Shown here piece after piece: positions 3,289 through 35,924 of a stretch of DNA of 64,000 nt (position 1 is its first letter; each line of letters starts with the position of its first letter). The notes under the pieces are model-generated. The model was not told the origin of the DNA and did no database searches. It was given only the letters and a program-made list of their open reading frames with translations. Origin of the DNA: an uncultured Thermoplasmata archaeon (GTDB lineage Archaea; Thermoplasmatota; DTKX01; GCA-020343715); NCBI GenBank assembly GCA_965369625.1, contig CBDUQW010000006.1:4064-68063 (forward strand), in the 5' to 3' direction. Both the position numbers and the translations under genes were made by a program.

Positions 3289-3290
3289 CC

Positions 3291-4403: not shown

Positions 4404-4415
4404 GGAGGTGACGAT

Positions 4416-4859
4416 ATGGCCGATACCAAGATGAAGGAAGCCGAGTACGAACCGAAGATCCTGTCGTTCTGCTGCAACTGGTGCTCCTACGCGGGCGCCG
4501 ACCTGGCCGGCGTGAGCCGGCTCCAGATGCCGGCCCACTTCCGCACCATCCGGGTCATGTGCTCCAGCCGCGTCAATCCCGTTTACGTGGTCACCGCCCT
4601 CGAGCGTGGCGCCGACGGGGTCATCGTTACGGGGTGCCACCCCGGAGACTGCCACTACGCCCGGGGGAACTACTTCACCCGGAGGCGCCAGGCCCTCCTC
4701 GAGAAGGTCCTCGAGGAGATAGGGTTCGACAAGGACCGGGTCATGCTGCGCTGGATCTCAGCCTCCGAGGGCCCCGAGTTCGCCAGCACCATGAAGGAGT
4801 TCGACACCACGATCAAGGCCAAGGGGAAGAACCCCCTGAGCGAAGAGGTGTTCCTCTAG
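4416..4859 (+). CDS. mvhD: MvhD/FlpD-like [2Fe-2S] protein (methyl-viologen-reducing hydrogenase delta subunit family)
   Basis: 147 aa. Cys pattern FCCNWCSY...MCSSR...GCHPGDCHY is typical of MvhD. It lies directly downstream of the hdrA-like genes, and a GGGAGGTGA ribosome-binding site precedes the ATG. Confidence 0.75.
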   Translation: MADTKMKEAEYEPKILSFCCNWCSYAGADLAGVSRLQMPAHFRTIRVMCSSRVNPVYVVTALERGADGVIVTGCHPGDCHYARGNYFTRRRQALLEKVLEEIGFDKDRVMLRWISASEGPEFASTMKEFDTTIKAKGKNPLSEEVFL

Positions 4860-11583: not shown

Positions 11584-14500
11584 ATGCCCAGCGGGACCAT
11601 TGGCCGTCGCAGAGGCAAGGTCGCGAGCCGAAGGGCCGTCCCTGCCGCCGTGGCGCTGTTGCTGGTCCTCGCGGGCCTTCCCCTCCTTCCGGGCATGGCA
11701 CCCATGGCCTCGGCCCAGGAGGAGGGGCTGGCGAACGTCATGGTCAACCCGGGCTTCGAGCGTGCCTTCGACGAGCCCTCGCAGGGCCCCCGACCGTTCT
11801 ACTGGCACCCCTCGCCCATGTGGCCCGCCTCGGGCACGGAGATGAGGCAGGACGGCGATCACCATCACAACGGCTCGAACTCGGTCAAGGTCCACATGGA
11901 GGATGTGAGCGACGACCAGGAGGCCTACTGGTACCAGAGCCAGTACGTCGGCGGCGGCGTCATCGCCCCCTTCGGTGGGTGGGTGAGGACGGACCTCGAG
12001 GAGGGCTCCACGGTCATCCTGCGCGTGATCGTCCGGGACGAGAACCGCTCGGTCCTTGACACCAGGGAGGTGTTCCTCGACGGAGACTGGCCTGTCTGGA
12101 GGGAGCTCCGGGGCGAGCCCTTCCTCCTGGACGACGAGACCAACCGGGTCCAGATGGAGTGCGTCCTCCTGGGACCCGGGACGGTGTGGTTCGACGATGT
12201 GTACGTCGGCATCCCCACGGACATGAACAACCCCCCCTTCGTCGTGTCCGTGCCCCAGCTGGACGCCGCCGTCGGCGTGGAGTACACCTACCGGGCGCGC
12301 GGCGTCGACCTGGAGGGCGACGTGGTGTCCTTCGGGTTGCAGAGGGGGCCGGATGGGATGAACGTGTCCGAGAGGGGTCTGGTATCCTGGGTGCCCGAGA
12401 CCCTGCCCGAGGCGGCCGTCAAGGTCGTGCTCAAGGCCATCGACGACGCCGGCGGTGTGTCCTACCAGGACTTCTTCATCCAGGTGCACGAGACGCCCGT
12501 CCAGCGCCCCGTCCACGTGTACCTGTACAGCACCTACGACGACCCGTTCAACGACGACCTGTCCGGTGAGAGGTACGACCGGCTGCTGCCCGTCCTCGAG
12601 AACCTGTGGCGGAACAACCCCGACCTCCATCCCTCGGTGACGGTCCTCCTCAACGGCGCGGACGTGACCGACCCGACCATCGGGCGCCTCGGTGCCATCC
12701 AGAGCATCGAGGAGGGGTCCGAGGCCGGTTGGCTGGAGGTTGGTTACACCGCCTTCCACGAGCCCACCTACGATACCAACCCCATCTACGACCCTGCATA
12801 CGACGGCTGGGACTGGACCGAGAGGGTCACGGCGGTCCAGGCCCTCCTCTCCCAGCCCCGGGACCCCCTGACCGGGGAGGAGCTGGCAATAGGGCATGGG
12901 GGCATCCAGGCCGTCATGGCGGCGATGGGGAACGTGTCCGTCGTGGCCGGCGCGGGCACCGACGGCGCGCAGCTGCACGCCCTGTCCCGCTTCGACGCCT
13001 CGTCCCTCCACCTGGGCATCGATGACGGCCCCTCCAAGATCGGCACGATAGTGGGTGACCCCTCAGCGGGTACGGTCGCCTCGATGCTGTCCGAGGACGC
13101 CGCGGTGCCCTACGGCCTCTACTGGCAGGGCGGTCGGTTGCACCTGGCGACGGCGGAGACGGGCCCGGACGGTCTGGTCGCCAGGGATGGTCCGGGTGCC
13201 CTCGGGGGGTCCTGGGATGGGCTCGACCCGCGACGCGTCAACGTGGTGCCCATCCTGCTGATGGACACGTCCACCTACTTCAACGCGTCCAAGGTGGTGT
13301 CATGGGACCCGGTCGGGTCCCCCACCGAATGGGCCTTCTCCCACACCGACGACCCTGGCCTGCCCGCCGAGGCCACCTACACGGAGGCCGAGCGTGACAT
13401 GATGTACGACGCCACCTGCGCCACCCTTGCGTGGCTGGCCAGGGAGGCGTTGCCCGCCACGGGTGGGCGCTTCGTCTCGAACACCGACCTGGCCGACATG
13501 GTGGACCCGGGTTCCGGCATCTCCGTGAGCCAGGCGGAGATCGCCGACGCCGCCAACGACCTCCTCGCCAGATGGACCCTCCTCAAGTACCCCAACTGGG
13601 TGGGGATATCCTGGGGCTACTGCCGGGGGGAGATCCAGTACTTCTCCCTCGCGGACATGTACGGCCTCCTCGCCCAGGCCCTGGCGGCCTACGATGAACG
13701 GGGGAGCCTGCCCTCCTCGGTGGGGCTTGTCACCGTCAACGGCCCCCGGGAGGACGCGACCCCCTCCCAACCCTGGAACCGGCTCCGCCTCGGGTCGGTG
13801 GTGGACGAGGCCGTGAGGCAGGTGGACGCCCTGACCGACGACGCCTGGCGGGTCGACCCCCGGAGCAAGGTGCCTTCCTCCAGCGCGCCGGGGGGCGTGG
13901 ACGTCAACGCGATGGAGTTCCTCCTGCTGATGGCCGAGGCCTACATGGTCCTGTACGAGGGCACCGCCACGGGCGACCCCCTCCTCACCCTCTACCCGTG
14001 CCACCAGTGGCCGGTCACCCAGCTGGCCCTTGACCTGGAGGGGAGGGTGACCGACGCGGGGGACTCGTGGGCGCTCAAGCCCGCCTCCTCCAACCTCAAG
14101 CAGGACACCGTCCCGCCCACGGTGAGGTACGTCACCCCGGCCCCGGGGTCCGAGGACGTGCCCCTGAACTCGAACATCACCGTCACCTTCTCCGAGCGGA
14201 TGGACGAGACCCTGTCCCTGGCGGACGCCGTCGAGGTGCTGCCTCCCGTCGGTGGGGAGGTCGCCTGGAGGTACCACAGGCTCGTGCTCGACCCGGGTGG
14301 CGACCTTCGGGACAACACGACGTACACCGTCACGGTGAAGCGTGGCCTCCGTGACGCCGCGGGCAACCCCCTGGCGGCGGAGGTCACATGGACCTTCGAG
14401 ACGGTGGGATTGGAGAACGGGCTGCCGTCGCTGCTACCCTGGCCCGAGGGTCGCTACGTGGAGGTGCTGGAGAACCAGACCGTCCGCCTGGGCGTCCTGG

Positions 14501-15402
14501 CAGAGGACGACGGCCCTCCGCCCCTGCGGTACTCTTGGCGCCTCGACGGGCTGCTGGTCGGGGGAGCAATAGGCGACAACTTCGTCTTCACGCCCACGTA
14601 CACGGACGCGGGGGAGCACATCGTGACCGTGGTGGTCAGCGACGCGGCGGAGCCCCCCGGGACCTCCTCCTTCACCTGGAACGTGACGGTGGTCAACGTC
14701 AACATACCCCCGTTGCTGCTGGGAACCGAGCCCTTCGCCGGGAGGGTGGACCTGCTCGAGAGTGAGGGGGTCGCCAGGTTCTATGTGGTCGCAGAGGACC
14801 CTGACGAGGGACTGCTGACCTTCCGGTGGTACCTGGATTCTCAGCCCGTCCCCGGGGAGCCCCACTCCGAGGGGGGCTCGGTCTACGACCTTCCCCTCAG
14901 CTTCGAGTCCGCTGGGGAGCACGAGCTCACATGCAGCATCGAGGACAGCGCCGGTGAGGGATTCCAGGTGGAATGGAGGGTCTTCGTGGAGGACGTCAAC
15001 CGCCATCCCATCATCCTGGCCATCTCGCCCGACCCTCCGCCCACGGTCCACATCGGGGAGAGCGTGCTCATCGAGGTGAACGCCTCCGACCCCGACGGCG
15101 ACGACCTGCTGTACAGCTGGTACCTGGACGGCATCCCCGTGGCGGCCACCGAGGTGGGGCAGTGGACCTTCGTGCCTCAAACGGAGGGCAGCTTCACCAT
15201 CGGTGTGCTGGTGGAGGACGGGCGGGAGGGGACGGTCTCGACCCAGACCGCGGTCAACGTGCTGCCCGAGGCGGCGGTGTCCCCGGACCCGGAGCCCTCG
15301 TACTGGCCCTGGATCGTCCTCCTCATCGCGATGGCGCTCATCATCCTGGTGCTGGTCTGGCCCCATCTACGTTGGCTCAGGGAGGGTGGGAACGAGCTGT
15401 GA
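11584..15402 (+). CDS. Large secreted cell-surface protein (signal peptide, Ig-like/PKD-like repeats, C-terminal transmembrane anchor)
   Basis: 1272 aa. Signal peptide AVALLLVLAGLPLLPGMAPMASA. A bacterial-Ig-like module follows (PPTVRYVTPAPGSEDVPLNSNITVTFSERMD), then repeated PKD-like units, then the transmembrane segment WPWIVLLIAMALIILVLVW. Confidence 0.7.
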   Translation: MPSGTIGRRRGKVASRRAVPAAVALLLVLAGLPLLPGMAPMASAQEEGLANVMVNPGFERAFDEPSQGPRPFYWHPSPMWPASGTEMRQDGDHHHNGSNSVKVHMEDVSDDQEAYWYQSQYVGGGVIAPFGGWVRTDLEEGSTVILRVIVRDENRSVLDTREVFLDGDWPVWRELRGEPFLLDDETNRVQMECVLLGPGTVWFDDVYVGIPTDMNNPPFVVSVPQLDAAVGVEYTYRARGVDLEGDVVSFGLQRGPDGMNVSERGLVSWVPETLPEAAVKVVLKAIDDAGGVSYQDFFIQVHETPVQRPVHVYLYSTYDDPFNDDLSGERYDRLLPVLENLWRNNPDLHPSVTVLLNGADVTDPTIGRLGAIQSIEEGSEAGWLEVGYTAFHEPTYDTNPIYDPAYDGWDWTERVTAVQALLSQPRDPLTGEELAIGHGGIQAVMAAMGNVSVVAGAGTDGAQLHALSRFDASSLHLGIDDGPSKIGTIVGDPSAGTVASMLSEDAAVPYGLYWQGGRLHLATAETGPDGLVARDGPGALGGSWDGLDPRRVNVVPILLMDTSTYFNASKVVSWDPVGSPTEWAFSHTDDPGLPAEATYTEAERDMMYDATCATLAWLAREALPATGGRFVSNTDLADMVDPGSGISVSQAEIADAANDLLARWTLLKYPNWVGISWGYCRGEIQYFSLADMYGLLAQALAAYDERGSLPSSVGLVTVNGPREDATPSQPWNRLRLGSVVDEAVRQVDALTDDAWRVDPRSKVPSSSAPGGVDVNAMEFLLLMAEAYMVLYEGTATGDPLLTLYPCHQWPVTQLALDLEGRVTDAGDSWALKPASSNLKQDTVPPTVRYVTPAPGSEDVPLNSNITVTFSERMDETLSLADAVEVLPPVGGEVAWRYHRLVLDPGGDLRDNTTYTVTVKRGLRDAAGNPLAAEVTWTFETVGLENGLPSLLPWPEGRYVEVLENQTVRLGVLAEDDGPPPLRYSWRLDGLLVGGAIGDNFVFTPTYTDAGEHIVTVVVSDAAEPPGTSSFTWNVTVVNVNIPPLLLGTEPFAGRVDLLESEGVARFYVVAEDPDEGLLTFRWYLDSQPVPGEPHSEGGSVYDLPLSFESAGEHELTCSIEDSAGEGFQVEWRVFVEDVNRHPIILAISPDPPPTVHIGESVLIEVNASDPDGDDLLYSWYLDGIPVAATEVGQWTFVPQTEGSFTIGVLVEDGREGTVSTQTAVNVLPEAAVSPDPEPSYWPWIVLLIAMALIILVLVWPHLRWLREGGNEL

Positions 15403-15508
15403 TGTGGGTCCCCGGGTCCATGCCAGGCCCGCACGAAAGGTATAATTCCCATTGTGTTCATCTGAATCGAGTGTCGGGGGATCGCCCTCCCTCGGTATAA
15501 TAAGGTAG

Positions 15509-16408
15509 ATGTCGCCTGGAGGAAGCCTGATGTCCATGGATAGGAGGGTATTGATCGTCCTTGGTGCCATCATCATTCTGGTCCCGGTAGCCAGTGGATG
15601 CTCCCCTTTCGAGCCCAAGGACGAGGTGGTGGACATGGACGGCATCATCGGTGACGACTGGCCTGTAATAATGGCGGAGGACGAGACGCCTCCTTTCGTC
15701 CCAACGATGCTGGACCTGGCCGTGGACCAGGGGACCTCCGTCACGCTGGACGGCTCCGGGGCCACGGACGATGAGGGCATCGAATCGTACGTTTGGACAT
15801 TCAAGTACGATTACGAAGAGGTAACATTGGAGGGGATGGTCCAGCATCACACCTTCGATATCCCTGACGTGTACGAGATACGGCTCGACGTGACGGACGA
15901 GGCTGGCAACAGCGCCTTCTCGACCTTCGACCTGACCGTCCGCGACACCGAGGTTCCCGTCGCCGTCCTCGACACCGGGAACACGGAGATCTGGGCGGGA
16001 GAGACCGCTGGCTGGGGAGCCCACCTCTCGACGGACAACGTCGGTGTCGTCAAGTACACCTGGACCTTCGAGTACGAAGGCAAGATGGTCAGCCTCGATG
16101 GTCCCGCCCCGACCTTCGTGTTCGAGAAGACGGGGGATTACGAGGTGACCCTCACCGTGGAGGACGCGGCGGGCAACACCGATTCGGAGACCTACGCCCT
16201 CACGGTCCAAGGTAATGCATGGCATTGGCTCCAGTTCGCCATCATCATAGGGGCCGTCGCCCTGGTCACGATATTCGTCATGCGCAGGCTCGGCTACGGG
16301 AAAGATGCCGGGGGAGAAGGGTCGGAAGAGGTAGTGGAGGGACCGGTAGGGGAGGAGCCGGAAGAGGAGGATGGGTCGGAAAAAGACGAGGAGGGGCCGG
16401 ACCCCTAG
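15509..16408 (+). CDS. PKD-domain membrane-anchored surface protein
   Basis: N-terminal signal/anchor followed by VASGCS. Two PKD-like repeats are present (TFKYDYEEV...; YTWTFEYEGKMV...). A C-terminal transmembrane helix is followed by an acidic tail (EEPEEEDGSEKDEE). Confidence 0.65.
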   Translation: MSPGGSLMSMDRRVLIVLGAIIILVPVASGCSPFEPKDEVVDMDGIIGDDWPVIMAEDETPPFVPTMLDLAVDQGTSVTLDGSGATDDEGIESYVWTFKYDYEEVTLEGMVQHHTFDIPDVYEIRLDVTDEAGNSAFSTFDLTVRDTEVPVAVLDTGNTEIWAGETAGWGAHLSTDNVGVVKYTWTFEYEGKMVSLDGPAPTFVFEKTGDYEVTLTVEDAAGNTDSETYALTVQGNAWHWLQFAIIIGAVALVTIFVMRRLGYGKDAGGEGSEEVVEGPVGEEPEEEDGSEKDEEGPDP

Positions 16409-19102: not shown

Positions 19103-22003
19103 CTAGTAGTCCAGCTCGTCGGAGTAATCGGGGAACCCGTTGGCAGGGACCTCTTGGGTCTCCTCCTCCGTGGGTGGCCTCGGCACCGAGGTCGGTGAGG
19201 TGGAGGCGGCCTGGTCGGCGCCGTAGAGGGCGACGGCCTCGTCCTCGGCCGGGGCTCCTGGCTTCCCCCTCATCACCATGATGGCGACGATGATGATGAC
19301 GAGGACGGCCACGATGACGCCCACCAGGACCATTACTCCCGAGGCTCCAGTGGACGTGGTGGTGGCCTCCTCCTCTATCTTGATCTCGAAGCTGTCGGTG
19401 GAGACGCCACCCCTGCTGTCGGTGACCTTCAGGGTCACGTTGTAGGTGCTTGGACTGGCGTAGATGTGGCTCCCCACCTTGTCGGTGGAGGTGGTGCCGT
19501 CACCGAATTCCCAGAGGTACGTCATGTCGTCATCGTTGGCGTCGGTCGCACCTGGGTCGAAGTAGACGGTCTCGTCCACCCTGTAGTTGCCACCCCCCAC
19601 CCTCTCACGGGGCGCTGGGTCGAGGGTCGGGATCCGGTTGGCGTCCACGTAGGCCTCCAGGGGGTACGAGTCCCCGGTGATCTCGAAGATCAGGTCGTGG
19701 GTCCCTGCCTCGGCCGTCCAGTAGAAGATCAGGGTCACCGGGGTGTCGACGTTGATGTTGATGGTGTCCTGGGAGACCTCGGTACCGTCGACGATGAAGG
19801 TGACGGTCACCCCACTGGCCCTGGCCTCGCCCCTGTTGTCGAGGACCACGGTGTACTTGATCGTGTCGGTCTCCACGGGGTACTCGTTGTTGGCCTCCGC
19901 GGTGATGAAGAACGGGTCGGGCTCGTAGGGCTTGACGGTGATGGTCACGTTGGTGCTGTGCTCGCCCTCGAAATCGTCCCTCACCGTCAGGGTGATGGCG
20001 TGCTCGCCCTCGGAGAGGGCCTTGTCGAAGGCCGCGGCGGTGCTCAGCAGACCGTCGATGTCGGAGACCCATTCGTACGTGAGGTCGTCGTCCTCCGGGT
20101 CCGTCGAGCTGACGGCGCTGAAGGGTATGTACTCGTCGGGGATGTACCTCTTCCCGTCGACGGGCAACGATATCTTGGCCAGGGGGTCCATGTTGATCAC
20201 GGTGGGTCCCTCCATGGGGCCCACGGCGGGATATCTCACCTGGTGCTTCCCATCGTTGAAGACGAAGTATATCCAGTGGGTGCCCATCGAAAGGGTGGTG
20301 GTGTACCTGAAGGTCTCGCCTCTGTAGTACTCGGACCCGTCGGGGTCCATGATGTTGGCCACCTCGTCGACGTAGATGTACGAGATGCTGGGATGGTCGT
20401 TCTCCTGGTCGGTGTAACTGATGGAGAAGGTGAACTCGTCCTTCCTGGTCCCCTCGTCGGGGCTGAACATGGGCATGGTCAGGTAGGGCTCGTTGTTCGG
20501 GGGGTCCACCTCGGGGCCGAGTATCCAGTTGGGGCTGTCGGTCTGGGGCGGCAGGCGCTTCTCGTCGATGCCGTCGGAGAAGAGGTAGTAGTACTTGTGG
20601 TTGAATCCCACCGCGAGCTTGGTGTCGTAGTAGTAGGTGACCCAGTCGTTCCACGGTCCCGTCGAGTCCGTCTGCATCTCGTGGGCGACGCCGTTGATGT
20701 TGATCATCGGCGAGACGGCCTCCTCGTTGTCGGCGTCCTTGTACATGATGTCGAAGTGGAAGATGGTGGACGTGTCGCCTCGCAGCGGGGCGTAGCTGGG
20801 CGACATGAGCTGCGGGTACTTGTTCCGGGGCTTGATGACCACCTGGGTGGCGTTCCATCCGTTGTCGCCCGTGGCGTCGGCGAAGCCGTCGGTGGCGAAG
20901 AACCGGTAGGTGTAGGTGCCCGGGTCGAGCCTTGTGGTCCAGGAGACCCACCTGCCGTCGGTCCAGGGGTCCGGCGAGTGCATGGGGGAGAGGGAGTGCT
21001 CGAGGACCGAGGAGGTGGCGTTCCTGAAGTACACCTTGGCCTCGGAGGGGCCCAGGTCCGGCCAGTCGTCGGGGTCCTGGTAGAACACCTTGAAGGTGAC
21101 GTCGTCGTCCTCGTTGGGGTTTTCTGGGGTCGCGACTTGTCCGGAGGCGATGGAGGGGGCCTGGTTGGGCACGGGGGTCATGTCGCTGTAGGTCGACTGG
21201 AGCACCTCGGCCGCGTACCTGTCGCTGCCTCCGTCTACCCGTGTGTGGGTCTGGACGAAGGCCACTACGGCCATGTCGTCCACCTTGGTGAAGGCGTCGG
21301 AGCTCAGGTCGAAGTTGTACTCGTACTCCTTGGTCTCTCCGTTGGCGATGGTCATCACCTCGCCGTTGGCGGAGGGCAGCATCTTGCGCACGGTGTAGTG
21401 GTGCATGGTCACACCGTTGCCACCATTCCAGGGCCCGTACTCCTTCCGCACGAGGACTGTGTGCAGGTACAGGTTCGATATGGAGGGCGTCTCCAGGGCG
21501 GTGACGTTCACCCAGACCTTGCCCGCCTTGTTGGGGGGTATGATGCCGTCCACGGTGATGTGCAGCTGGGACTGGATGGCCCGCCGGGTGTCGTACTGGG
21601 TCTCGAACCAATCCTCGGCGGCCTGTTCATCATAGAAACCACCCGCATGGATGATCTTGCCATCCACCCACATGTTGGGGGTCGAATGGGGTCCTGAGCT
21701 GATGTACCAGCCTTGGCGGGTGGCGGCGTCCTGGGTGGAGAGCTTGTCGGGTCGGGGGATCGGCCGGTGGTACACGAGGGCGATGGCCTCGTCGCGAGTG
21801 TGGGAATCCAAGAAGCCGTCAAGTCCCAGGTCCGCGTTCCTGCAGGGGGGACAATCCGCCCCCGTGAACATCTCCACCAGGACCGCCCTGGCCTCGGTGG
21901 CGTTCGGGGTGATGTTCCTGTCCGCGGCCCCAACGGGGACGAGGAGGGAGAAGCCAGATAGCAGGAACATGGTCAGTATCAAGGTGGTCATCAACCTTTT
22001 CAT
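19103..22003 (-). CDS. Giant surface protein: signal peptide, N-terminal thioredoxin-fold domain (CPPC), Ig-like/PKD repeats, C-terminal transmembrane anchor
   Basis: Start at MKRLMTT (ATG with GGAGGT 6 nt upstream). The domain VLVEMFTGADCPPCRNADLG follows directly after the signal peptide. The C-terminus is a hydrophobic helix (GVMVLVGVIVAVLVIIIVAIMV) plus an acidic tail. Confidence 0.75.
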   Translation of the reverse strand: MKRLMTTLILTMFLLSGFSLLVPVGAADRNITPNATEARAVLVEMFTGADCPPCRNADLGLDGFLDSHTRDEAIALVYHRPIPRPDKLSTQDAATRQGWYISSGPHSTPNMWVDGKIIHAGGFYDEQAAEDWFETQYDTRRAIQSQLHITVDGIIPPNKAGKVWVNVTALETPSISNLYLHTVLVRKEYGPWNGGNGVTMHHYTVRKMLPSANGEVMTIANGETKEYEYNFDLSSDAFTKVDDMAVVAFVQTHTRVDGGSDRYAAEVLQSTYSDMTPVPNQAPSIASGQVATPENPNEDDDVTFKVFYQDPDDWPDLGPSEAKVYFRNATSSVLEHSLSPMHSPDPWTDGRWVSWTTRLDPGTYTYRFFATDGFADATGDNGWNATQVVIKPRNKYPQLMSPSYAPLRGDTSTIFHFDIMYKDADNEEAVSPMININGVAHEMQTDSTGPWNDWVTYYYDTKLAVGFNHKYYYLFSDGIDEKRLPPQTDSPNWILGPEVDPPNNEPYLTMPMFSPDEGTRKDEFTFSISYTDQENDHPSISYIYVDEVANIMDPDGSEYYRGETFRYTTTLSMGTHWIYFVFNDGKHQVRYPAVGPMEGPTVINMDPLAKISLPVDGKRYIPDEYIPFSAVSSTDPEDDDLTYEWVSDIDGLLSTAAAFDKALSEGEHAITLTVRDDFEGEHSTNVTITVKPYEPDPFFITAEANNEYPVETDTIKYTVVLDNRGEARASGVTVTFIVDGTEVSQDTININVDTPVTLIFYWTAEAGTHDLIFEITGDSYPLEAYVDANRIPTLDPAPRERVGGGNYRVDETVYFDPGATDANDDDMTYLWEFGDGTTSTDKVGSHIYASPSTYNVTLKVTDSRGGVSTDSFEIKIEEEATTTSTGASGVMVLVGVIVAVLVIIIVAIMVMRGKPGAPAEDEAVALYGADQAASTSPTSVPRPPTEEETQEVPANGFPDYSDELDY

Positions 22004-22039
22004 AGCATTACCTCCAGTAAGCCTTCTCATTGCGATGGC

Positions 22040-22062
22040 GAAGACCTTTAAAAAATGTTTGG
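22040..22062 (-). promoter_or_regulatory. BRE/TATA promoter (sense strand CGAAACCAAACATTTTTTAAAGG) for the thioredoxin-fold surface protein gene
   Basis: A T-rich TATA preceded by an A-rich BRE lies 40-60 nt upstream of the ATG at 22003. Confidence 0.5.
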
Positions 22063-22363
22063 TTTCGAACACTGGCGCCTGAATGGGAGGTGGCTGGCAG
22101 GGACCGCTTCGGATTAGGTGTGGCTAAATCTCGAGACCCCCTTCCGTGCCGGTGAGGGGGCCTGAGATGACTGGCATCGGTGGTCACGGGAGGTGACGGG
22201 GGAGGCCTATCCCGAGGTTCCACCCCGTGGTGCTCCCCCCCAGGCTCGCGCAGATGTTGAAATGTCCAGTTCGAACTGCCTTCGGCTCGCGCTGTGGGCT
22301 AGGCGGGCCCCGTGGGGTCCGCGCCGTTGCACCCTGGGGGGGGTGCTAGGTCGTTCCAATTGT

Positions 22364-25075
22364 CTACCGTCGGCGGCGCACTACCACGACCAGCATGGCG
22401 ACCAGGAAGGCGCTGGCGGCGAGGAGCGCACCGAAGCCAGGGGACTCGTCGTCCGACTGGGGCTTGGTGACGGTCACCGTCAGTTCCTTGCTCACGACAC
22501 CACCGCGCTCGTCGGTGACGGTGACCTTCACGGTGTAGGTACCGGCCTCCGAGTACACGTGGGTGGGGGTCGCCCGGGTGTCGGTCATGCCGTCGCCGAA
22601 GTCCCAGAAGTAGGTGGCGTCATCGCCGTTGGCGTCGGTGACCTCGATGGTGAAGTAGACGTCCTTGCCAGGCTCGACCTCCAGTTCGGTGCCACCGCCC
22701 TCGAGGAAGGTCACCGTGACCTCGGGCAGCGTGTTGGCGGCCACGACCTCGGTGAGGTCCATGGACTCCTTCCCCACCTCGATGGTGATGGTGTGGGTGC
22801 CGACCACGGCCTCGGGCCAGGTGAAGACCTGGTCCGTGAGGGTGTTGCGCTGCACCGTCAGGGTGTCCGAGCTTATCTGGACGCCGTCCACCAGGAAGCG
22901 GATCTCCACGCCGGTGTCCTGGATCTCGCCGTCGTTGTTGAGGGTGACGGTGTACTTCACGCGGTCCATCTCCACGGGCTCGGCCGCGTCGGGGGTGATG
23001 CTCACGATGAAGGTGTGAGGCTCGTAGGGCTTGACCGTCAGGGAGACGGAGGTGGAGTGGACGCCGCCCCAGGAGTCGGTGACCTCAAGGGTGATGGTGT
23101 GCTCGCCCTCCGAGAGGGGCTTGTCGAAGGCCTCCAGGGTGCTGAGCTCGCCATCGACGTCCGAGGTCCACTTGTAGCTCATCTCGTCGCCCTCGGGGTC
23201 GTCGGAGCCGACGGCGCTGAAGGGGATGTAGTCGTCCGGAGTGAAGCGGACGCCGTCCGCGGGGGCAGCTATCTTCGCCACGGGGTCCATGTTGGTCACC
23301 ACGGGGCCGGTGATGTAGCCCGTCGCGGGGAACCTCACCATGGTCTTCCCGTCGTTGAACCCGAAGTGGATATCGTGGCCGCCCATGGTCATCCGGGTGG
23401 TGTAGCGGAAGGTGACGCCGACATCGTAGACCGACCCGTCGGGGTTCATGATGTACGGGACGTCGTCGATGTACACGTAGGATATGGTGGGATGGGCGTT
23501 CTCGGCATCGGTGTATTTGACGGTGAAGGTGAACTCGGTGTCCCGGGTGCCCTCCGCTGGCGTGAACTTCCCTTCGGTCAGGTATGGCTCGTTGTTGGGG
23601 GCCAAGACCTCCGGTCCTATGAAGAAGTTGGGGCTGGCGCCGGCGGACGGCATCCTCACCGAGTCCTCGCCGTCCGAGAACGTGAAGTAGTATCGGTAAA
23701 TGTCCTTGACCGACAGGGTGGTCTCGTAGTAGAAGGTCGCCCAGCTGTTCCATGGTCCAGTGGAATCGGTGTCCATGTCGTGGCCGACATTGTCGATGTA
23801 GATCTTGGCCTCCGCGGGCTCCTCGTTGTCCAGGTCCCGGTAGAGGATGTCGAAGCGGAACACGGTGTTGGTATCGCCGTCCTGGGGAGCGTAGCTGTGG
23901 GTGCTGAGCTGGGGCACCTTGTTCCGGGGGAGGATGGTGATCTGGGTGGCGTTCCAGGCTACGTCCCCGGTCGCGTCGTCCTCGCCGTCGTTGGCGGAGA
24001 AGCGGTAGGTGTACGTGCCCGGGGTCAGCGTGTTGGTGTACTGCATCCATTTGCCTACAGTGAAGGGGTCACCGCTGGAGATTTTGATCAGGTCGTGGCT
24101 GGTCGGATCGTTCGTGCCGTTCTTGAGGTAGACCTTGGCCTCGGAGGGGCCTTTGTCCTTCCTGTCGTCAGTGTCGCGGTACCATACCTTGAACTGGACC
24201 TCGTCATCCTCGGTGGCCTCGAGGGTCGATGCCTGTCCATCGCTGATGGTCGGAGGGACGTTGGGGAGCACGGGCACGCCGACGTAAGCTGCCTGGAGGA
24301 CCTCCAGGCCCGTTCCATGGGACTGCACGAAGGCGATGATGCCGATCTCCTCCCGGTCCTGGGCGTACGAGGACGTGTCGAAGGAGTATTCGACGTTCTT
24401 CGTCTGACCCTGGGTCAGGGAGACGGTGGTGCCCGACGCGCCCTCGGACTCAAGGAAGTCCCGGGCGGACCAGTTATGCCAATTCTCATTGTTACCACCG
24501 TTATAGGGACCGTAGTTCATTTCGAAGACCACGGTGTGGAGCTTCAGGTTAGAGAGGCTTGGGGTATCGACGGCGGTGATGTTGATCCAGGCATCGCCCT
24601 CTCCAGTCATGTCATCGTAGTCCCACTCCACCGTCAATCGGAGGGGAGAGGTAATGACCGACCGTTGGTTTATTAATCCCACGACCCGGTTGTAGTTCTG
24701 AACGGGGGTCCCAGCGGATCCATGAGCAGCAAGTTTTCCGTCGACCTTGATATGTGGGATACCGGACGGGTTGTAGAGGCTTAAACGAGCGTTCCCCTCG
24801 GTGTTCGAGAGTTGGTCACCCGAATGATAGGCGAGAATGACAACCTCGTCCCTCTCAAAGTTGTCCTCAACCATCTGCAGGCCCTTGTTCGCATTCACGC
24901 AGGGACCACACCAGGCTCCGGTCATTAGCTCCGCCAGCACCACGCGCTGGGTGCCCATGGGCGCGATGTCCATGGGCGCTGGCCCGGCTTCCTCGGCAGA
25001 AGCTGCCGGCACGAAGACGGCCATGGTCGATATCAAGAACAATACAACGATTCCAATGGTACGGATCTTTGCCAC
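22364..25075 (-). CDS. Giant surface protein, paralogue: thioredoxin-fold domain (WCGPC), Ig-like/PKD repeats, C-terminal transmembrane anchor
   Basis: GTG start giving MAKIRTIGIVVLFLISTMAVFVPAASA as signal peptide, with AAGGAGGA 7 nt upstream. LAELMTGAWCGPCVNANK is the canonical thioredoxin active site. Architecture is collinear with 19103..22003. Confidence 0.75.
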   Translation of the reverse strand: MAKIRTIGIVVLFLISTMAVFVPAASAEEAGPAPMDIAPMGTQRVVLAELMTGAWCGPCVNANKGLQMVEDNFERDEVVILAYHSGDQLSNTEGNARLSLYNPSGIPHIKVDGKLAAHGSAGTPVQNYNRVVGLINQRSVITSPLRLTVEWDYDDMTGEGDAWINITAVDTPSLSNLKLHTVVFEMNYGPYNGGNNENWHNWSARDFLESEGASGTTVSLTQGQTKNVEYSFDTSSYAQDREEIGIIAFVQSHGTGLEVLQAAYVGVPVLPNVPPTISDGQASTLEATEDDEVQFKVWYRDTDDRKDKGPSEAKVYLKNGTNDPTSHDLIKISSGDPFTVGKWMQYTNTLTPGTYTYRFSANDGEDDATGDVAWNATQITILPRNKVPQLSTHSYAPQDGDTNTVFRFDILYRDLDNEEPAEAKIYIDNVGHDMDTDSTGPWNSWATFYYETTLSVKDIYRYYFTFSDGEDSVRMPSAGASPNFFIGPEVLAPNNEPYLTEGKFTPAEGTRDTEFTFTVKYTDAENAHPTISYVYIDDVPYIMNPDGSVYDVGVTFRYTTRMTMGGHDIHFGFNDGKTMVRFPATGYITGPVVTNMDPVAKIAAPADGVRFTPDDYIPFSAVGSDDPEGDEMSYKWTSDVDGELSTLEAFDKPLSEGEHTITLEVTDSWGGVHSTSVSLTVKPYEPHTFIVSITPDAAEPVEMDRVKYTVTLNNDGEIQDTGVEIRFLVDGVQISSDTLTVQRNTLTDQVFTWPEAVVGTHTITIEVGKESMDLTEVVAANTLPEVTVTFLEGGGTELEVEPGKDVYFTIEVTDANGDDATYFWDFGDGMTDTRATPTHVYSEAGTYTVKVTVTDERGGVVSKELTVTVTKPQSDDESPGFGALLAASAFLVAMLVVVVRRRR

Positions 25076-25282
25076 CCTAACATCCTCCTTATACAGGATC
25101 TTATCCCAATCGACAAGATGGCAAGGGCGTTCTCCCCACTCTTCTACATGGGTCCCCCTGACCAATCTCAGTACGACTGGTGGAGATTCAAAGCGTGGGT
25201 CCAGTAGATAAAACCTTTGGTTTTTAGTTGGACTGGAGTGTTAGGGCCAGCTAATCCCATTAGAGGAGTTTTGGGAACATTC

Positions 25283-26295: not shown

Positions 26296-26371
26296 TGGGC
26301 CTAGCCGGATTCGAACCGGCGACCTCCCGGTTATCAGCCGGGTGCTCCAGACCGTACTAAGCTATAGGCCC
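26296..26371 (-). tRNA. tRNA-Ile (anticodon GAU)
   Basis: The reverse complement folds as a cloverleaf. The 7-bp acceptor stem pairs GGGCCTA with TAGGCCC. The anticodon stem CCCGG/CCGGG carries loop CTGATAA. The T-arm contains GGTTCGAATCC. No CCA is encoded. Confidence 0.85.
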
Positions 26372-30422: not shown

Positions 30423-30553
30423 CAGACCAGAAATGGTAATCGAGATTGTTACCGGATTTGGTAACATACACCGTACCGGTGTCCCCTGGGCGAGGTTATT
30501 TGTGGGGTGATGCCCATGGCATCGGTCGCGTGGTGGAGATTTCCTTGGGTTGG

Positions 30554-32230
30554 GTGAAATGCATGCTCCTGGCATCCGCCCTGGCAATACTGGCAATGGC
30601 CCTTCTCCCAGCGGGGAGCGTGGCGGCCGAGGACATCGAACCCGACTTCTACGGCCTGGTCGACCAGCCCTTGGCCCTGAACGTGGACGTGGAACCCGGT
30701 GGGCCAGTGGACCTCTACCACTGGGATCTCGACGGTGATGGCGTCTTCGATCGGTCGTCCGTTCAGGCGAACGTGACCCACACGTACAACGCCTCCGGTA
30801 CCTATCAGGCGGTGCTGCGGGCGAACCTCACCAACGGCTCGATCAGGATGTGGTTGTTCCTGGTGGAGATCGCACCACGGAACCAGATCCCCGTGGTGGT
30901 CATCATCGGTCACGAGGATGATTACGTGGAGACGGACAGGCTCACACCAGTGGAGCTGCTGGGAACGGCCACCGATGATGGCCAGATCGTTCTGTACGAA
31001 TGGGACTTCGAGGGGGACGGTATCTACGATTGGTCCTCTCCCGTGACCAAGGGCACCAACCACACCTTCACCCAGCTGGGCACCCACGTGGCAGTGCTAC
31101 GGGCCACCGATGACCAAGGGGCCAACGGCATGGCCATCCTCATCGTCCATGTGATCAACCTGGCTCCCGTGATGCAGAACCATCACAGGATCATCACCAA
31201 CAGACCAGATGTGGAGCTCAAAGCTTACGCGGAAGACCCCGACGGGGAGATCGTCACCTACACCTGGACCTTCGACGATGGCTCGGAGCCCGTGAACACC
31301 ACCGTCCCGTGGGTGACCCACATCTTCCCAGTGCATCCCGGGTACTACTTGGTCCAGATACAGGTCTTGGACAACGACGGTGGCTCATCGACTACATCGT
31401 TTTACGTGGAGATGAAGGGAGATATCCATTTCAGGGTCCACAAGGTCGATGCAGGGCCCGACATCATCACCGTGGTGGGCAAGGCCGTCCAGTTCAACGT
31501 TAACGTGTCGGACGGCACCGAGGCGATCGAGCACTACTACTGGGACCTGACGGGCGATGGTGTCACGGACACCGACGCGAGGACCATCACCTACGTTTAC
31601 GACCATGCGTGGACCATCGAGGTCACCGTGTCCGTGGTGGACGAGTGGGGATATGCGGTGAACGATTCGCTGGTGGTCACCGTGTATCCCGAGGAGAACG
31701 AGCCGCCCGTGCCCGTTCCCTCGATGGAGCAGTGGGTGAGGCCCGGACGGAACCTGAGGTTCTCAGAACAGTCGTACGACCCCGACGGCTCCATCGTGCT
31801 GTACCAGTGGGACTTCGACGGGAACGGCACCTTCGACCACGCCGACACCGAGGACGGCAACGTCACCCACGTGTACGTCGACGAGGGCGTCTACGTGGCG
31901 GTGCTCCAGGTGACCGACAACCGGGGCGAGGTGGCCTCGGTCCCGGTGACCATCAAGGTGAGCAACGACGCCCCCGACGAGGACGATGTGGACGACAGCA
32001 TGGGCGCCGCGGTGTGCTGCATATCCATGGTGGTGGTGATGGTCGTCATCGCGTACTGGACCATGCGGAAGTCCGCGGCCACACCGCGGAAGGACGGGGG
32101 CCCGGTCCAACAGGAGGTCGAGGCCTCCGAGGGGCCCACGGAAGAGGAGGAGGAAGCAGAGCAGGAGGCAGAACAGGAGGCAGAACAGGAGGCAGAACAG
32201 GAGGCGGGACCCGAGGGCGGTCCTGATTAG
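30554..32230 (+). CDS. PKD-repeat surface protein (signal peptide, at least 4 PKD-like domains, C-terminal transmembrane helix and acidic EAEQ-repeat tail)
   Basis: GTG start gives MKCMLLASALAILAMALLPAGSVAA; the ATG at 30563 is an alternative. Repeated units of the YxWDxDGDG type are present. The tail reads EEEEEAEQEAEQEAEQEAEQEAGPEGGPD. Confidence 0.7.
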   Translation: MKCMLLASALAILAMALLPAGSVAAEDIEPDFYGLVDQPLALNVDVEPGGPVDLYHWDLDGDGVFDRSSVQANVTHTYNASGTYQAVLRANLTNGSIRMWLFLVEIAPRNQIPVVVIIGHEDDYVETDRLTPVELLGTATDDGQIVLYEWDFEGDGIYDWSSPVTKGTNHTFTQLGTHVAVLRATDDQGANGMAILIVHVINLAPVMQNHHRIITNRPDVELKAYAEDPDGEIVTYTWTFDDGSEPVNTTVPWVTHIFPVHPGYYLVQIQVLDNDGGSSTTSFYVEMKGDIHFRVHKVDAGPDIITVVGKAVQFNVNVSDGTEAIEHYYWDLTGDGVTDTDARTITYVYDHAWTIEVTVSVVDEWGYAVNDSLVVTVYPEENEPPVPVPSMEQWVRPGRNLRFSEQSYDPDGSIVLYQWDFDGNGTFDHADTEDGNVTHVYVDEGVYVAVLQVTDNRGEVASVPVTIKVSNDAPDEDDVDDSMGAAVCCISMVVVMVVIAYWTMRKSAATPRKDGGPVQQEVEASEGPTEEEEEAEQEAEQEAEQEAEQEAGPEGGPD

Positions 32231-32268
32231 CCGCGATGGTTATCCACCCGTCGTTATAACCCCCGGAG

Positions 32269-35200
32269 GTGGTCGAGGGCCGCGAAGGTCCATTGGGGAC
32301 CTTCCGGGATGGTGATGCACGCCTGAGAACCCCGTACTCCGCCAGCTACCGCTGGCGCCGCGATCGTGCCGGGAGGGTCAGCTTCTCCTCCGCGGCCGTC
32401 CTCCTGCTGGTCCTCTTCACCTACTCGATGGCCCTCACGGGGCCGAACGGGCCCTGGGCCGGGGACGGAGCGGACGACCTCTCCCTTGCGGACCTGGAGG
32501 CAATGCTGCGTGACGGCATCCAGCAGGCACTGGATGCGGCCCTCGAGAGGGCGGTCCATGCTGCGGCGCTGGCGGATGGGATCGACCTTGCCAGCGCCCT
32601 TGACGCCGCCTTCTCGTCCTGTCTTCCACGATACCTGCCAGAGGAGGCGCGGGGATGGAAGGTGGACCTCGAGCGCGCCCGCGCCGGCCTGAGGTGCTCT
32701 CCCGTCCCTCCCCCGGGACCGGGTCTGCACCTCGCCGCCACCGGACCCGTCGCCCTGGTCGAGGTGAGCCTGACGGCACCCTACTTCGACACGGCCAGAC
32801 CCCTCCGCCTGGCACTGGTGGTGTCGGGACCCCTCTCATCCCCCAATGCCCTCGTGGCCAGGACGTCCTCCACCATGGCAGCCCTGTCGGACGACGGGGG
32901 TCCCCTCGCCTACGCCCTTCGCAACATCCTGTGGGAGACGGTCCAGTCGGAGGTCCTCAAGGGTCAGCGGGGGGCCAGTGGGTCGATCGGACCTGAGGCG
33001 GTCGAGACGGTCTTCAAGCGGGTCATCGGGGATGTCGCCCGAGGCGGTCCACCGGCGGCCCCCGGTGTGCCCAGTATCGACCTGGAGGCTCTGGTCCGGC
33101 AGGCCGTCGAGGGGATGCTCCAGCGGAACCTGGGCTGGTTGGACGAGTACATCCTCGGGGGAGAGGTGATGGAGTGGCTGGAGGAGCTGGGGGGGCTGGG
33201 GGGGCTGGGGGGGCTGGGTGAACTGGGGTCGATCCGAAGGGACCTCCGGACGCTGGCGGCCCGGAGGGTGGCCGAGGTCACCATCGCCGTCCTCGAGGAT
33301 GCGGGTCTCGGGGTCTGGGCCCCCGATCGTGAGGATGACCTCACGGGGACGGTGGAGGCGGGAGTGGATGCCCTCAGGGGGCTCTCCGACCGCCTCCAGG
33401 AGGCCTCCGCCTTCGAGGGAGCGGCGGCCAGGGCCGGGAGGGAGTTCGCACAGGAGGCCCTCACAGCACTCCTGGGGGCCATTCCCGGGTCCCTGGAGGA
33501 TGGGATGGTCGAGGCCCTCGAGGGTCGTGCGGCCTGGGCATTCTCCCAGGTCGCCCTCGTCGTGGCCAGGCTTGGGCTCGACTGTGCCAGGGACGCCCTC
33601 CTGGCCATAGGGACCTGCGGTCGCGAGGTCGATGCCGGAGAGGTGGGGCGGGTGGACGCCTCATCATCCGGTCCCCGCGTGGAGCTGGGGCCTTTGAACG
33701 TCTCCACCTCCTGGTCGGGAGTGGTGGCCTGCGAGCCTGGCAACCTGATCGGTCCGGCGGTGAGGGCGCTCTGGGAAGGGGACGGGCTGCCAGAGGTCCC
33801 CATGGGCTCGATGCCCTACCGGGCGACGTGCCTGGTGGCCGTCGAGGGGACGGCCCGGCTCGTGGCGAGGTTGGGGCCATCCGCACACGGGGACGGGGGA
33901 GGGGAGGTGGTCTGGCACGTCCCGGTGGACCTGTCCGTGGAGGTGCCCCTGGTCAGCGGCTGGCCGTTGGAGGGCGTGGAGTACGTGCCGTCCGCGACGC
34001 TGGCAGGGGACCTGACGACGGTGGTGGAGGCGGCCTACGGCAGCGTCGGGTCGTCCTTCGGGTGGCTGGTGCAGAGGTTCTCGGACGCGGACGAGTGGGT
34101 CAGGACGCAGCTTCTCGACCTGGCCGGCGACATGAGGGAGAGCCTGATGACCGAGTCGGCCTACACCCTCTCCCAGGCCCTGTGGAGCATCGGGGACGAC
34201 CTGGTGGACCGGAAGGTCAACGACGCCATCAACCGCTCTTGGGACCTGCTGATGGACCTGTTCGGGGACGACCTTCGCGAGGCCCTCACCTGGGAGTTCG
34301 AGGTCATGGGGATCGACATGCGGCTGTCGGTCGACCCTGCCAAGCAGCAGCTGGAGGTGCTCGCAAGGAGGGGGGAGGTGTCCCTGTTGCTGTGCGTCCG
34401 ACGCCTGTGCGACCCGCATCCGCCCTTCGCCGCGAGGCCCATCTCGGGCTACCACTGGGGGGTCTTCGGTGAGGCCAGGCTCGATACGGAGGACGGGGGT
34501 GCGGTGCTGTACCTCGACCCCCTGACGCTGGAGCATCCCTCGGTGATGACGGTGGAGGCCCGCTGGGGGGACGTGACGAACGGCTCGGGTCGGCTCCTCC
34601 GGGTGGAGGCGCTGGAGGCCCGGAAGCAGCGGGGGACCACGGGGGTGTCCCTCTCCCAGCTGGTCGGAGGGTCCGCGTTGCTCTCCATGGTCGGGGGCCT
34701 CGCCGTGGACGCCGGCGTGGCGGTCCACGGGGACCTGGGCGAGGAGGGGGCGATGGAGGAGATGCTGTCCCGTGCGGTGAAGGACGCGTGGATGGCCACC
34801 GTGCGCGGGTGGAAGGTGGGCGACCTCCTGGGTGGGACGGGCAGGGGGCCCGACGCCGGGGCATTCCTCGAGACCCTGCTCCGTGAGCTGTACTTCGCGC
34901 TGGTCGAACGCGGGTCGGGCCTGGTGGAGGAGATCGAGGCCTTCGTCGAGGTGGACCCTCCCGACCCCGTGTGGCCCGCGGTGAGGGTGTCCCTGGTGGT
35001 GTTGCGGCCCCTGGAGGTGCTGCTCCCCCTCGTCGAGTGGGTGAGGGGGGCGCTGCCCGGGCTCGTGGACGGGGCGTGGTCCGGGAGCGGCGGGGGGGGG
35101 TCACACGGTGGCGGGACGGGGCTGGCGGCCTGGGCGGCCGAGCATGTGGTGGTGCGGACCGAACTCTCGTGGACGGTGGACGTCCCGGAACGCCTTCGTT

Positions 35201-35898: not shown

Positions 35899-35924
35899 GG
35901 CTAGTTGGCCTGGGGGGTTCCCGG

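Follow-up and report, generated by a model that had tools for sequence, protein, structure and literature searches.

What might two archaeal proteins of more than 900 residues, each with only two cysteines, both held in a CxxC motif near the N-terminus, do with that motif? The question is raised by a pair of adjacent minus-strand genes in a 64,000-nt stretch of DNA from an uncultured Thermoplasmata archaeon (contig CBDUQW010000006.1; the whole stretch is hereafter called the window), which an earlier note had described as tandem paralogous adhesin-like giants with an extracellular thioredoxin domain at the N-terminus. Here, we combine sequence profiles, structure prediction and comparison of related loci to identify the N-terminal module (the head), to describe the stalk and anchors that follow it, and to weigh what the cysteine pair may be for. 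The reading that we consider probable is that both proteins are stalk-displayed, membrane-anchored thiol-disulfide exchange modules.

The upstream paralogue, gene 2 (22364..25075, minus strand), encodes 903 aa from a GTG start and has a WCGPC head and a PGF-CTERM-like end; the downstream paralogue, gene 1 (19103..22003, minus strand), encodes 966 aa from an ATG start and has a DCPPC head, a transmembrane (TM) anchor and a cytoplasmic tail. Both open reading frames (ORFs) are intact and the genes lie 360 bp apart. GGAGG stands 7 nt upstream of the gene 1 ATG (position 22003), and the gene 2 GTG (position 25075) follows AAGGAGG by nine bases, a start and Shine-Dalgarno-like element that are conserved in the orthologous locus L001. 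The gene 2 product is identical to the database protein P0005 (903 aa), and the gene 1 product is 88% identical to P0007. Aligned with each other, the two proteins are 46% identical over 914 columns (E = 0) and collinear from end to end; they are true collinear paralogues and not a chance resemblance, as the earlier note had held, and the peptides that it quoted, VEMFTGADCPPCRNAD in gene 1 and AELMTGAWCGPCVNANK in gene 2, are found in the proteins. Each protein contains two cysteines in its more than 900 residues, and both belong to the CxxC (C51/C54 in gene 1, C56/C59 in gene 2); the orthologues and relatives P0007, P0008 and P0025 likewise have only the two cysteines of this motif.

The head takes up about 230 aa behind the signal peptide. 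It has two parts, a thioredoxin fold packed against a beta-sandwich, and belongs to the Omp28/HBP35/DUF1223 superfamily. In gene 2, the thioredoxin-fold subdomain spans aa 44–140 (24656..24946, minus strand), with its CGPC motif (C56, C59) at 24899..24910, and the Omp28-type beta-sandwich spans aa 141–266 (24278..24655, minus strand; strands 118–238 of the model described below). In gene 1, the whole head covers aa 30–277 (21173..21916, minus strand; 350 bits against the hidden Markov model, or HMM, of head alignment A1), with the CPPC motif (C51, C54) at 21842..21853 on the same strand. An AlphaFold2 (AF2) model of gene 2 aa 28–272, built from a 4-sequence alignment and of moderate confidence (predicted local distance difference test, pLDDT, 74; pTM 0.78), has the topology beta-alpha-beta-alpha-beta-beta-alpha (E19–25, H30–45, E51–57, H65–74, E81–84, E87–89 and H97–112 in model numbering, with E for strand and H for helix), followed by a sandwich of seven to eight strands. 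The two cysteines (model C29/C32) are placed at the start of the first helix (30–45). When this model was compared with the Protein Data Bank (PDB) using Foldseek, the top match was HBP35 of Porphyromonas gingivalis (5Y1A; E 1.3e-13, TMq 0.69, 248 columns) and the second was the Omp28 domain 2R2C.

Sequence profiles lead to the same proteins. A profile of 26 diverse heads (A3), searched against PDB sequences, matched HBP35 at 9e-11, aligning both halves of the module and setting the CxxC on C48/C51, the DUF1223 protein Atu2684 (2AXO) at 1.7e-10, the Methanocaldococcus jannaschii thioredoxin 1FO5 at 1.2e-7 (from beta1 to the VPT cis-Pro, with CxxC on CPHC), the archaeal thioredoxin 1NHO at 1.9e-6 and Omp28 2R2C at 7e-5; classical thioredoxins and glutaredoxins, dozens of them, scored more weakly. 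Alignment of the same profile with Escherichia coli TrxA by hhalign (probability 97%) put WCGPC on WCGPC, C56/C59 on C32/C35, and GIPH on the cis-Pro motif GIPT; the PDB matches corroborate the result independently. By alignment, the cis-Pro loop before beta3 reads GIPH in gene 2 and STPN in gene 1, against GIPT in TrxA and VPT in 1FO5. The cysteine pair falls on the thioredoxin active site, and the profiles did not place the head in a non-redox family with the two cysteines away from that site; the claim that the N-terminal segment has a thioredoxin fold is borne out by the model, the Foldseek matches and the profiles.

Such a placement requires profiles of many heads. A single head searched against the PDB with phmmer gave marginal thioredoxin matches only (E ~0.7–1.6), and neither protein matched Pfam Thioredoxin PF00085 (threshold 23.5 bits) at E <= 1. 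Against Pfam Omp28 (PF11551), gene 1 scored 26.6 bits for a cut-off of 34.9, and against DUF1223 (PF06764) 18.7 bits for a cut-off of 30.7, with no match of gene 2 to either. The NCBIfam models ‘Omp28-related selenoprotein’ and ‘Omp28 family outer membrane lipoprotein’ (NF045500 and NF033782) were matched at E 1e-7 to 1e-10, or 28.5–40.6 bits against cut-offs of 150–200; the selenoprotein model was the best match, and gene 1 met it (Omp28_seleno) at 2e-9. A homologue of the gene 2 head (P0001, 3e-18) bridges the gap: it exceeds the PF11551 and PF06764 cut-offs and scores 20.8 bits against PF00085. Taken together, we hold the assignment of fold and family with high confidence.

Comparison with classical thioredoxins (TrxA; Mj0307, 1FO5; MtH895, 1NHO) shows what is shared and what is not. 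Fold, position of the CxxC at a helix N-terminus and cis-Pro loop are common to both, and gene 2 even carries the canonical WCGPC; in contrast to those cytoplasmic proteins of ~85–110 aa, which are recycled by thioredoxin reductase, the heads are predicted to be extracytoplasmic, are fused to a beta-sandwich and a stalk, have extra conserved residues and stay below PF00085.

The family to which the heads belong is large. When the head profile was run exhaustively with HMMER against 1.84 billion cluster representatives (50% identity), 13,293 matched at E <= 1e-3, 5,953 at E <= 1e-10 and 449 at E <= 1e-30; the gene 2 head as query in a word-indexed search yielded only 4 homologues. Proteins named ‘Omp28-related outer membrane protein’ were retrieved at 1e-57 to 1e-60, and homologues with this name come from Bacteroidales, Marinimicrobia, Cloacimonetes and Blastocatellia; they typically carry type IX secretion system (T9SS) sorting, PKD, FlgD-Ig or dockerin domains. 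Some homologues bear the JGI names ‘thiol-disulfide isomerase/thioredoxin’ or ‘glutaredoxin’. Among the 150 best representatives, the head is N-terminal in 115, and 49 of these 150 proteins reach at least 700 aa. Since PKD/Ig fusions and sorting signals are routine in homologues, a head joined to beta-sandwich domains and a surface anchor is the norm of the family and no oddity, contrary to the earlier description of the fusion as unusual. The likeness to the Omp28 family (PF11551; NF033782, NF045500; 2R2C) extends to the same two-domain head, with homology over the whole module, and relatives found by the head profile carry the Omp28 name, pass PF11551 and are often fused to PKD domains and surface-sorting signals. 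Unlike the window proteins, which stay below every curated cut-off, the proteins that bear the name come from bacteria (Bacteroidota, Marinimicrobia, Cloacimonadota and others), and most of them have 250–450 aa.

Within the 150 best representatives, the CxxC is retained in 162 of 172 domains (94%), and 99% of related domains have the cis-Pro. The two residues between the cysteines vary widely: CPPC was counted 29 times, CGPC 19, CGYC 10, CPNC and CPYC 9 each, and ~35 other forms make up the remainder. Judged from the motif being the only pair of cysteines, from its retention and that of the cis-Pro, and from a match to a model named as selenoprotein, the CxxC looks functional; selenocysteine marks redox-active sites. 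In the literature, we found nothing tying Omp28 to selenoproteins, and Omp28 was mentioned with thioredoxin only incidentally.

The closest studied protein is HBP35, which is both the best structural match and the best PDB sequence-profile match of the heads and, like them, joins a thioredoxin fold and an Ig-like beta-sandwich in one module of a secreted, surface-anchored protein. Recombinant HBP35 reduces insulin disulfides faster than E. coli thioredoxin, its C48S/C51S substitutions abolish this activity, hbp35 complements an E. coli dsbA mutant, and the mature protein is anchored at the surface (PMC2907840). The residues needed for insulin reduction are thus those on which the window CxxC aligns. 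The two systems differ in other respects. HBP35 has 344 aa and no stalk, is exported by the type IX route via a C-terminal domain and is attached to anionic lipopolysaccharide, whereas the window proteins are archaeal, have 903 and 966 aa, carry their heads on a 600-aa stalk and end in a PGF-CTERM-like or TM anchor; the sequences share only ~17% identity. Furthermore, the region of the YH..D..R..Y signature discussed below was left unaligned by HMMER, and HBP35 may lack this signature.

HBP35 is also the source of a different view of the heads, in which they serve mainly for ligand binding or adhesion (hemin, another cofactor or a polymer), with the thioredoxin fold as a scaffold and the cysteine pair as a structural staple or leftover. 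HBP35 binds hemin, a 27-kDa form without the thioredoxin motif still does so, and the mutant grows poorly without hemin (PMC2907840). About 6% of related domains have lost a cysteine with the rest of the signature kept, the CxxC dipeptide is hypervariable, PKD, CARDB and Ig-like stalk domains are typical of binding proteins, and a model of the stalk repeat resembles glycoside hydrolase sandwich modules and domains like carbohydrate-binding modules. Opposed to this, 94% of domains keep the CxxC precisely where the catalytic motif belongs, along with the cis-Pro; the motif is the entire cysteine content of proteins of >900 aa; the family includes a model named as selenoprotein; and the HBP35 cysteines are catalytically competent (PMC2907840). 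We regard a mainly binding or adhesive role as unlikely.

Conservation in the heads is not limited to the cysteines. Twelve further positions (in gene 2, E49, T52, H84, D87, R97, Y101, P107, G113, E185, R205, Q251 and Q261) are about as conserved as the cysteines themselves, and eight of them, E49, H84, D87, R97, Y101, E185, R205 and Q251, are conserved to 88–99% among CxxC-bearing domains. Those in the thioredoxin part also occur in 2AXO: the signature E-x6-CxxC ... YH ... D ... R..Y ... P ... (D/N)G is common to the window heads and DUF1223 (PF06764; Atu2684, 2AXO; E 1.7e-10), a family placed in the thioredoxin-like clan, SCOP c.47.1.19 (PMC3091736). DUF1223 proteins, unlike those of the window, are small and consist of a single module; gene 1 matches their model below threshold and gene 2 does not match it. 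Where a domain lacks one cysteine, it is mostly the first that is lost, with the second and the remaining signature kept. In classical thioredoxins, the first cysteine is the nucleophile. The pattern of conservation suggests that the conserved residues form a composite site between the two subdomains.

This opens a further alternative, namely that the heads are composite-site enzymes or metal- or metalloid-handling modules (CxxC with E, H, D, R and Y, plus E, R, Q and Q of the sandwich) that carry out a specific extracellular reaction on a metal, metalloid or sulfur compound and not general disulfide exchange. It would account for the high conservation of the eight residues and for their partial sharing with DUF1223, and the loss of the first cysteine with retention of the second is the reverse of what is seen in classical monothiol thioredoxins; other thioredoxin-fold families, such as ArsD and ArsC, handle a metalloid or metal through the motif (PMC3091736). 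On the other side, the family is not known to have a cofactor or metal site, the clustering of the signature residues around the CxxC is drawn from conservation and not from coordinates, and HBP35 behaves as a plain disulfide reductase in vitro (PMC2907840). On balance, this alternative seems to us improbable.

If the heads exchange thiols with other molecules, where would they do so? Read directly, both N-termini, MKRLMTTLILTMFLLSGFSLLVPVGA before AD in gene 1 (aa 1–26, ending VPVGA; 21926..22003, minus strand) and M/VAKIRTIGIVVLFLISTMAVFVPAASA before EE in gene 2 (aa 1–27, ending PAASA; 24995..25075, minus strand), look like typical cleavable signal peptides, in keeping with what the earlier note had proposed. 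Behind the head stands a stalk of ~600 aa made of three Ig-like repeats followed by PKD-like, CARDB and PKD domains. The collinear Ig-like and PKD-like domains announced earlier are thus present, on a stalk shorter than the roughly 900 aa then given. The repeats, of ~105 aa each, lie at aa 271–595 in gene 2 (23291..24265, minus strand; repeat alignment, AF2 and Foldseek) and at aa 279–604 in gene 1 (20192..21169, minus strand; repeat alignment). The repeats had no match in Pfam or among PDB sequences, and a profile of six of them had none in the word-indexed search; an AF2 model of one repeat is an Ig-like sandwich (pLDDT 84.5), with a module of a multi-modular xanthanase (6FHJ, TM score 0.77) as its top Foldseek match. 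These repeats are probably a lineage-specific domain family.

The remainder of the stalk was assigned with Pfam. In gene 2, a K319L-like PKD domain (aa 613–681, 23033..23239; PF22352, 27.7 bits), a CARDB-like domain (aa 689–768, 22772..23011; PF07705, 22.6 bits, at the cut-off) and a PKD domain (aa 798–869, 22469..22684; PF18911/PF00801, E 4e-21) follow one another on the minus strand. The same order is found in gene 1, with a K319L-like PKD domain that is sub-threshold at 23.6 bits and collinear with that of gene 2 (aa 622–690, 19934..20140), a CARDB domain (aa 701–787, 19643..19903; PF07705, 29.9 bits) and a PKD domain (aa 807–875, 19379..19585; PF18911, 7e-21), all again on the minus strand.

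At their C-termini, the two paralogues differ, and the transmembrane anchor that had been assigned to both is seen in gene 1 only. Here, 23 hydrophobic residues followed by RGK form a TM helix (aa 889–911, 19271..19339, minus strand), after which comes an acidic, Pro-rich tail of 55 residues (aa 912–966, ending in YSDELDY; 19106..19270, minus strand) that is conserved in P0007 and has a similar counterpart in the downstream copy of locus L015. Gene 2 ends instead in SPGF-GALLAASAFLVAMLVVVV-RRRR (22367..22444, minus strand), which has the tripartite form of the archaeal PGF-CTERM sorting signal: a short motif, a hydrophobic helix and a basic run. All models for such signals were matched below threshold (PGF_CTERM TIGR04126, 12.1 for 24.5; PF18204, 10.9 for 18.8; Heimdall-CTERM, 19.6 for 24), and the T9SS C-terminal domain PF18962 had no match in the window proteins. 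We expect that gene 2 is probably processed and lipid-anchored via this signal, and that gene 1 would stay a type I membrane protein with its short acidic tail in the cytoplasm. Display at the surface is further supported by the ends of homologues: the closest representatives terminate in PGF-CTERM-like signals, TM helices with cytoplasmic tails, dockerins or T9SS domains.

The tail of gene 1 could in principle make this protein a transmembrane redox sensor, in which the state of the outer CxxC is relayed via the single helix to the cytoplasm. The TM helix and acidic tail with an aromatic last residue are kept in gene 1, P0007 and the downstream copy of L015, and the cytoplasmic tails of the relatives P0006, P0031 and P0078 are zinc-finger-like. 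However, the gene 1 tail is without a recognisable signalling domain, gene 2 and most relatives are without any cytoplasmic part, and with 600 aa of stalk separating the head from the membrane, conformational coupling is implausible; we consider a sensor very unlikely. P0006, P0031 and P0078 themselves, which combine a head and a TM helix with a tail ending in C-x2-C ... H-x3-H, are possible transmembrane signalling variants of the family.

Related loci indicate how stable this arrangement is. One, 79% identical to gene 2, lies in a ‘Methanobacteriota archaeon’ metagenome-assembled genome (MAG) and another, at 51%, in an ‘uncultured Thermoplasmata archaeon’ MAG; eight further loci come from metagenomes. 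As determined by tblastn of the window neighbours, the site in relatives has the order EMC3-like, cytidylate kinase, Cbf5, CinA, two to three paralogues, convergent Trm5/Tyw2, pyrB and pyrI, and a paralogue array at this fixed site is seen in L011, L012, L013, L015 and L016. L015 (7836–13928) mirrors the window, its upstream copy having a PGF-CTERM-like end and its downstream copy a TM helix and acidic tail, with CGPC in both copies. P0007, the 88%-identical gene 1 orthologue, also has CGPC and not CPPC, and other relatives have CGYC, CGFC or CGWC; the PP/GP difference between the window genes is therefore recent and lineage-specific. The two copies do differ at this dipeptide, as the earlier note states; a stable specialisation of the paralogues by CxxC dipeptide is rejected on these grounds.

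One of these arrays differs in its heads. The middle of the three copies in L012 (4533–7361) keeps the whole stalk, 42–46% identical to aa ~270–880 of genes 1 and 2, and a PGF-CTERM-like end. In place of the thioredoxin/Omp28 head, it starts with ~270 aa of unrelated sequence that match Lactamase_B_3, a metallo-beta-lactamase fold, weakly (E 0.006, 17 bits, sub-threshold). From this alignment, heads appear to have been swapped on a common stalk, the head being the exchangeable functional part.

Taken together, these observations are consistent with the following scheme. Each gene would specify a secreted, membrane-anchored surface protein with a head on a stalk, the ~600-aa stalk keeping the head away from the membrane. 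The CxxC, at the N-terminus of the first helix with the cis-proline loop opposite, would cycle between dithiol and disulfide and thereby exchange with substrates that bear thiols or disulfides outside the cell or at its surface, as HBP35 does in vitro. A surface-tethered thiol-disulfide oxidoreductase, one of the possibilities raised in the earlier note, is accordingly named here as the best-supported reading, for which HBP35 is the precedent (PMC2907840); actual redox catalysis by the heads we judge to be somewhat favoured. The bacterial proteins TlpA, ResA, CcmG/DsbE and DsbA place a thioredoxin-fold CxxC domain at the outer face of the cytoplasmic membrane, where it acts on secreted proteins, as the window heads may do; unlike the window proteins, they are short, have their anchor at the N-terminus and work with dedicated partners (DsbD/CcdA or DsbB).

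Several points weigh against exchange as the function. Activity data within the family come from HBP35 and from no archaeal member, and the physiological phenotype of HBP35 itself lies in hemin utilisation, the mutant growing poorly without hemin, and not in a demonstrated redox role (PMC2907840). Both window proteins fall under the curated cut-offs of the Pfam Thioredoxin, Omp28 and DUF1223 models and the NCBIfam Omp28 models, and the head model, with its pLDDT of 74 from four sequences, is only moderately confident. The hypervariability of the CxxC dipeptide, evident even between close orthologues, argues against a finely tuned redox potential, and the set of conserved non-cysteine residues, which persists where the first cysteine is lost, suggests a chemistry beyond that of a plain thioredoxin. 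Finally, no DsbD/CcdA, VKOR, DsbB or thioredoxin reductase was found among the window genes scanned, and no redox partner was found beside three bacterial homologues examined.

These three homologues sit among genes for secreted T9SS cargo (C25 peptidase, peptidylarginine deiminase or PAD enzyme, and PKD proteins). At one such locus (L005, 1–7598), genes for a C25 cysteine peptidase of the gingipain type and for PAD_porph are followed directly by an Omp28-related gene, and the products of all three look like T9SS cargo; at this single locus, a surface thioredoxin-like protein beside a surface cysteine peptidase could have a thiol-maintenance role. In the window, HdrA/MvhD-like genes were considered as a redox partner and not linked to the pair, being cytoplasmic and 14 kb away; they belong to a heterodisulfide-reductase-like cluster (479–4859, plus strand) with an HdrA-like flavoprotein with 4Fe-4S domains, ferredoxin-domain ORFs and an MvhD/FlpD-like gene.

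Both genes are preceded by a common A-rich/T-rich motif, as previously noticed. The pattern AAACCAAA[C/G][A/G]TTTT[T/A]T occurs in 64 kb, with 2 mismatches allowed, only at 25208–25223 (minus strand; AAACCAAAGGTTTTAT, ~130 nt before the gene 2 start codon) and 22050–22065 (minus strand; AAACCAAACATTTTTT, ~45 nt before the gene 1 ATG), a count that involves a circular estimate of chance because the pattern was derived from these same two sites. Its conservation extends to L001, where it precedes the gene 2 orthologue. In form, the motif resembles an archaeal promoter of the type made up of a TFB-recognition element (BRE) and TATA box, and may act as one for both genes; a scan for bacterial promoters and terminators gave nothing useful, as expected for an archaeon.

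The immediate neighbours of the gene pair are housekeeping genes, and a tRNA gene (26296–26371, minus strand; 71 bits), the sole Rfam match in the window, stands between the CinA-like and Cbf5 genes. No further copy of the head was found in the window, where the other giant surface proteins score E > 4 against the A1 HMM. Six consecutive genes for giants of 1088–1615 aa occupy 35925–62502 (minus strand), with just an asparaginase gene and a PdxS/SNZ gene in between; the giants carry Glucodextran_B, Big_13, right-handed beta-helix, FG-GAP, fn3 and CARDB domains, and none has a thioredoxin/Omp28 head. Secreted-type multi-domain proteins are encoded on the plus strand at 11584–16408 and 30446–35898, namely a 1272-aa Big_5/PKD protein, a 299-aa PKD protein, a 594-aa protein with five PKD domains and a 1209-aa lamin-tail (LTD) protein. 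Over the gene for the last of these, GC content reaches 0.70–0.72 (32001–36000), compared to about 0.63 elsewhere in the window, which may reflect an insert of different composition or coding sequence of low complexity.

The window proteins are a new, divergent archaeal example of a large, already named and poorly understood family (Omp28/HBP35), not a new kind of protein, and the surprise for a specialist is modest. Standard annotation would miss the head, which lies below every curated threshold, and would label the genes as PKD-domain or hypothetical proteins. The surface thioredoxin/Omp28 module, so far discussed for Bacteroidota (HBP35), is also present in archaea, with what seem to be archaeal anchoring devices, and persists in them as a conserved array of paralogues. 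The family comprises 13,293 clusters (50% identity), of which one member has been studied biochemically, and its conserved residues go beyond the CxxC; an archaeal head in soluble form, having no cysteines but these two, would lend itself well to work on redox potential and substrates. As a speculation that goes further, and to which we give little weight, the Omp28/DUF1223-type head may represent an uncharacterised class of extracellular redox enzymes with a composite active site, displayed by uncultured Thermoplasmata alongside other swappable heads on a common 600-aa stalk and acting on disulfide-linked organic matter, organosulfur compounds or metal(loid)s. If so, the two genes of the window would open a way to finding out what this family of more than 13,000 clusters does.

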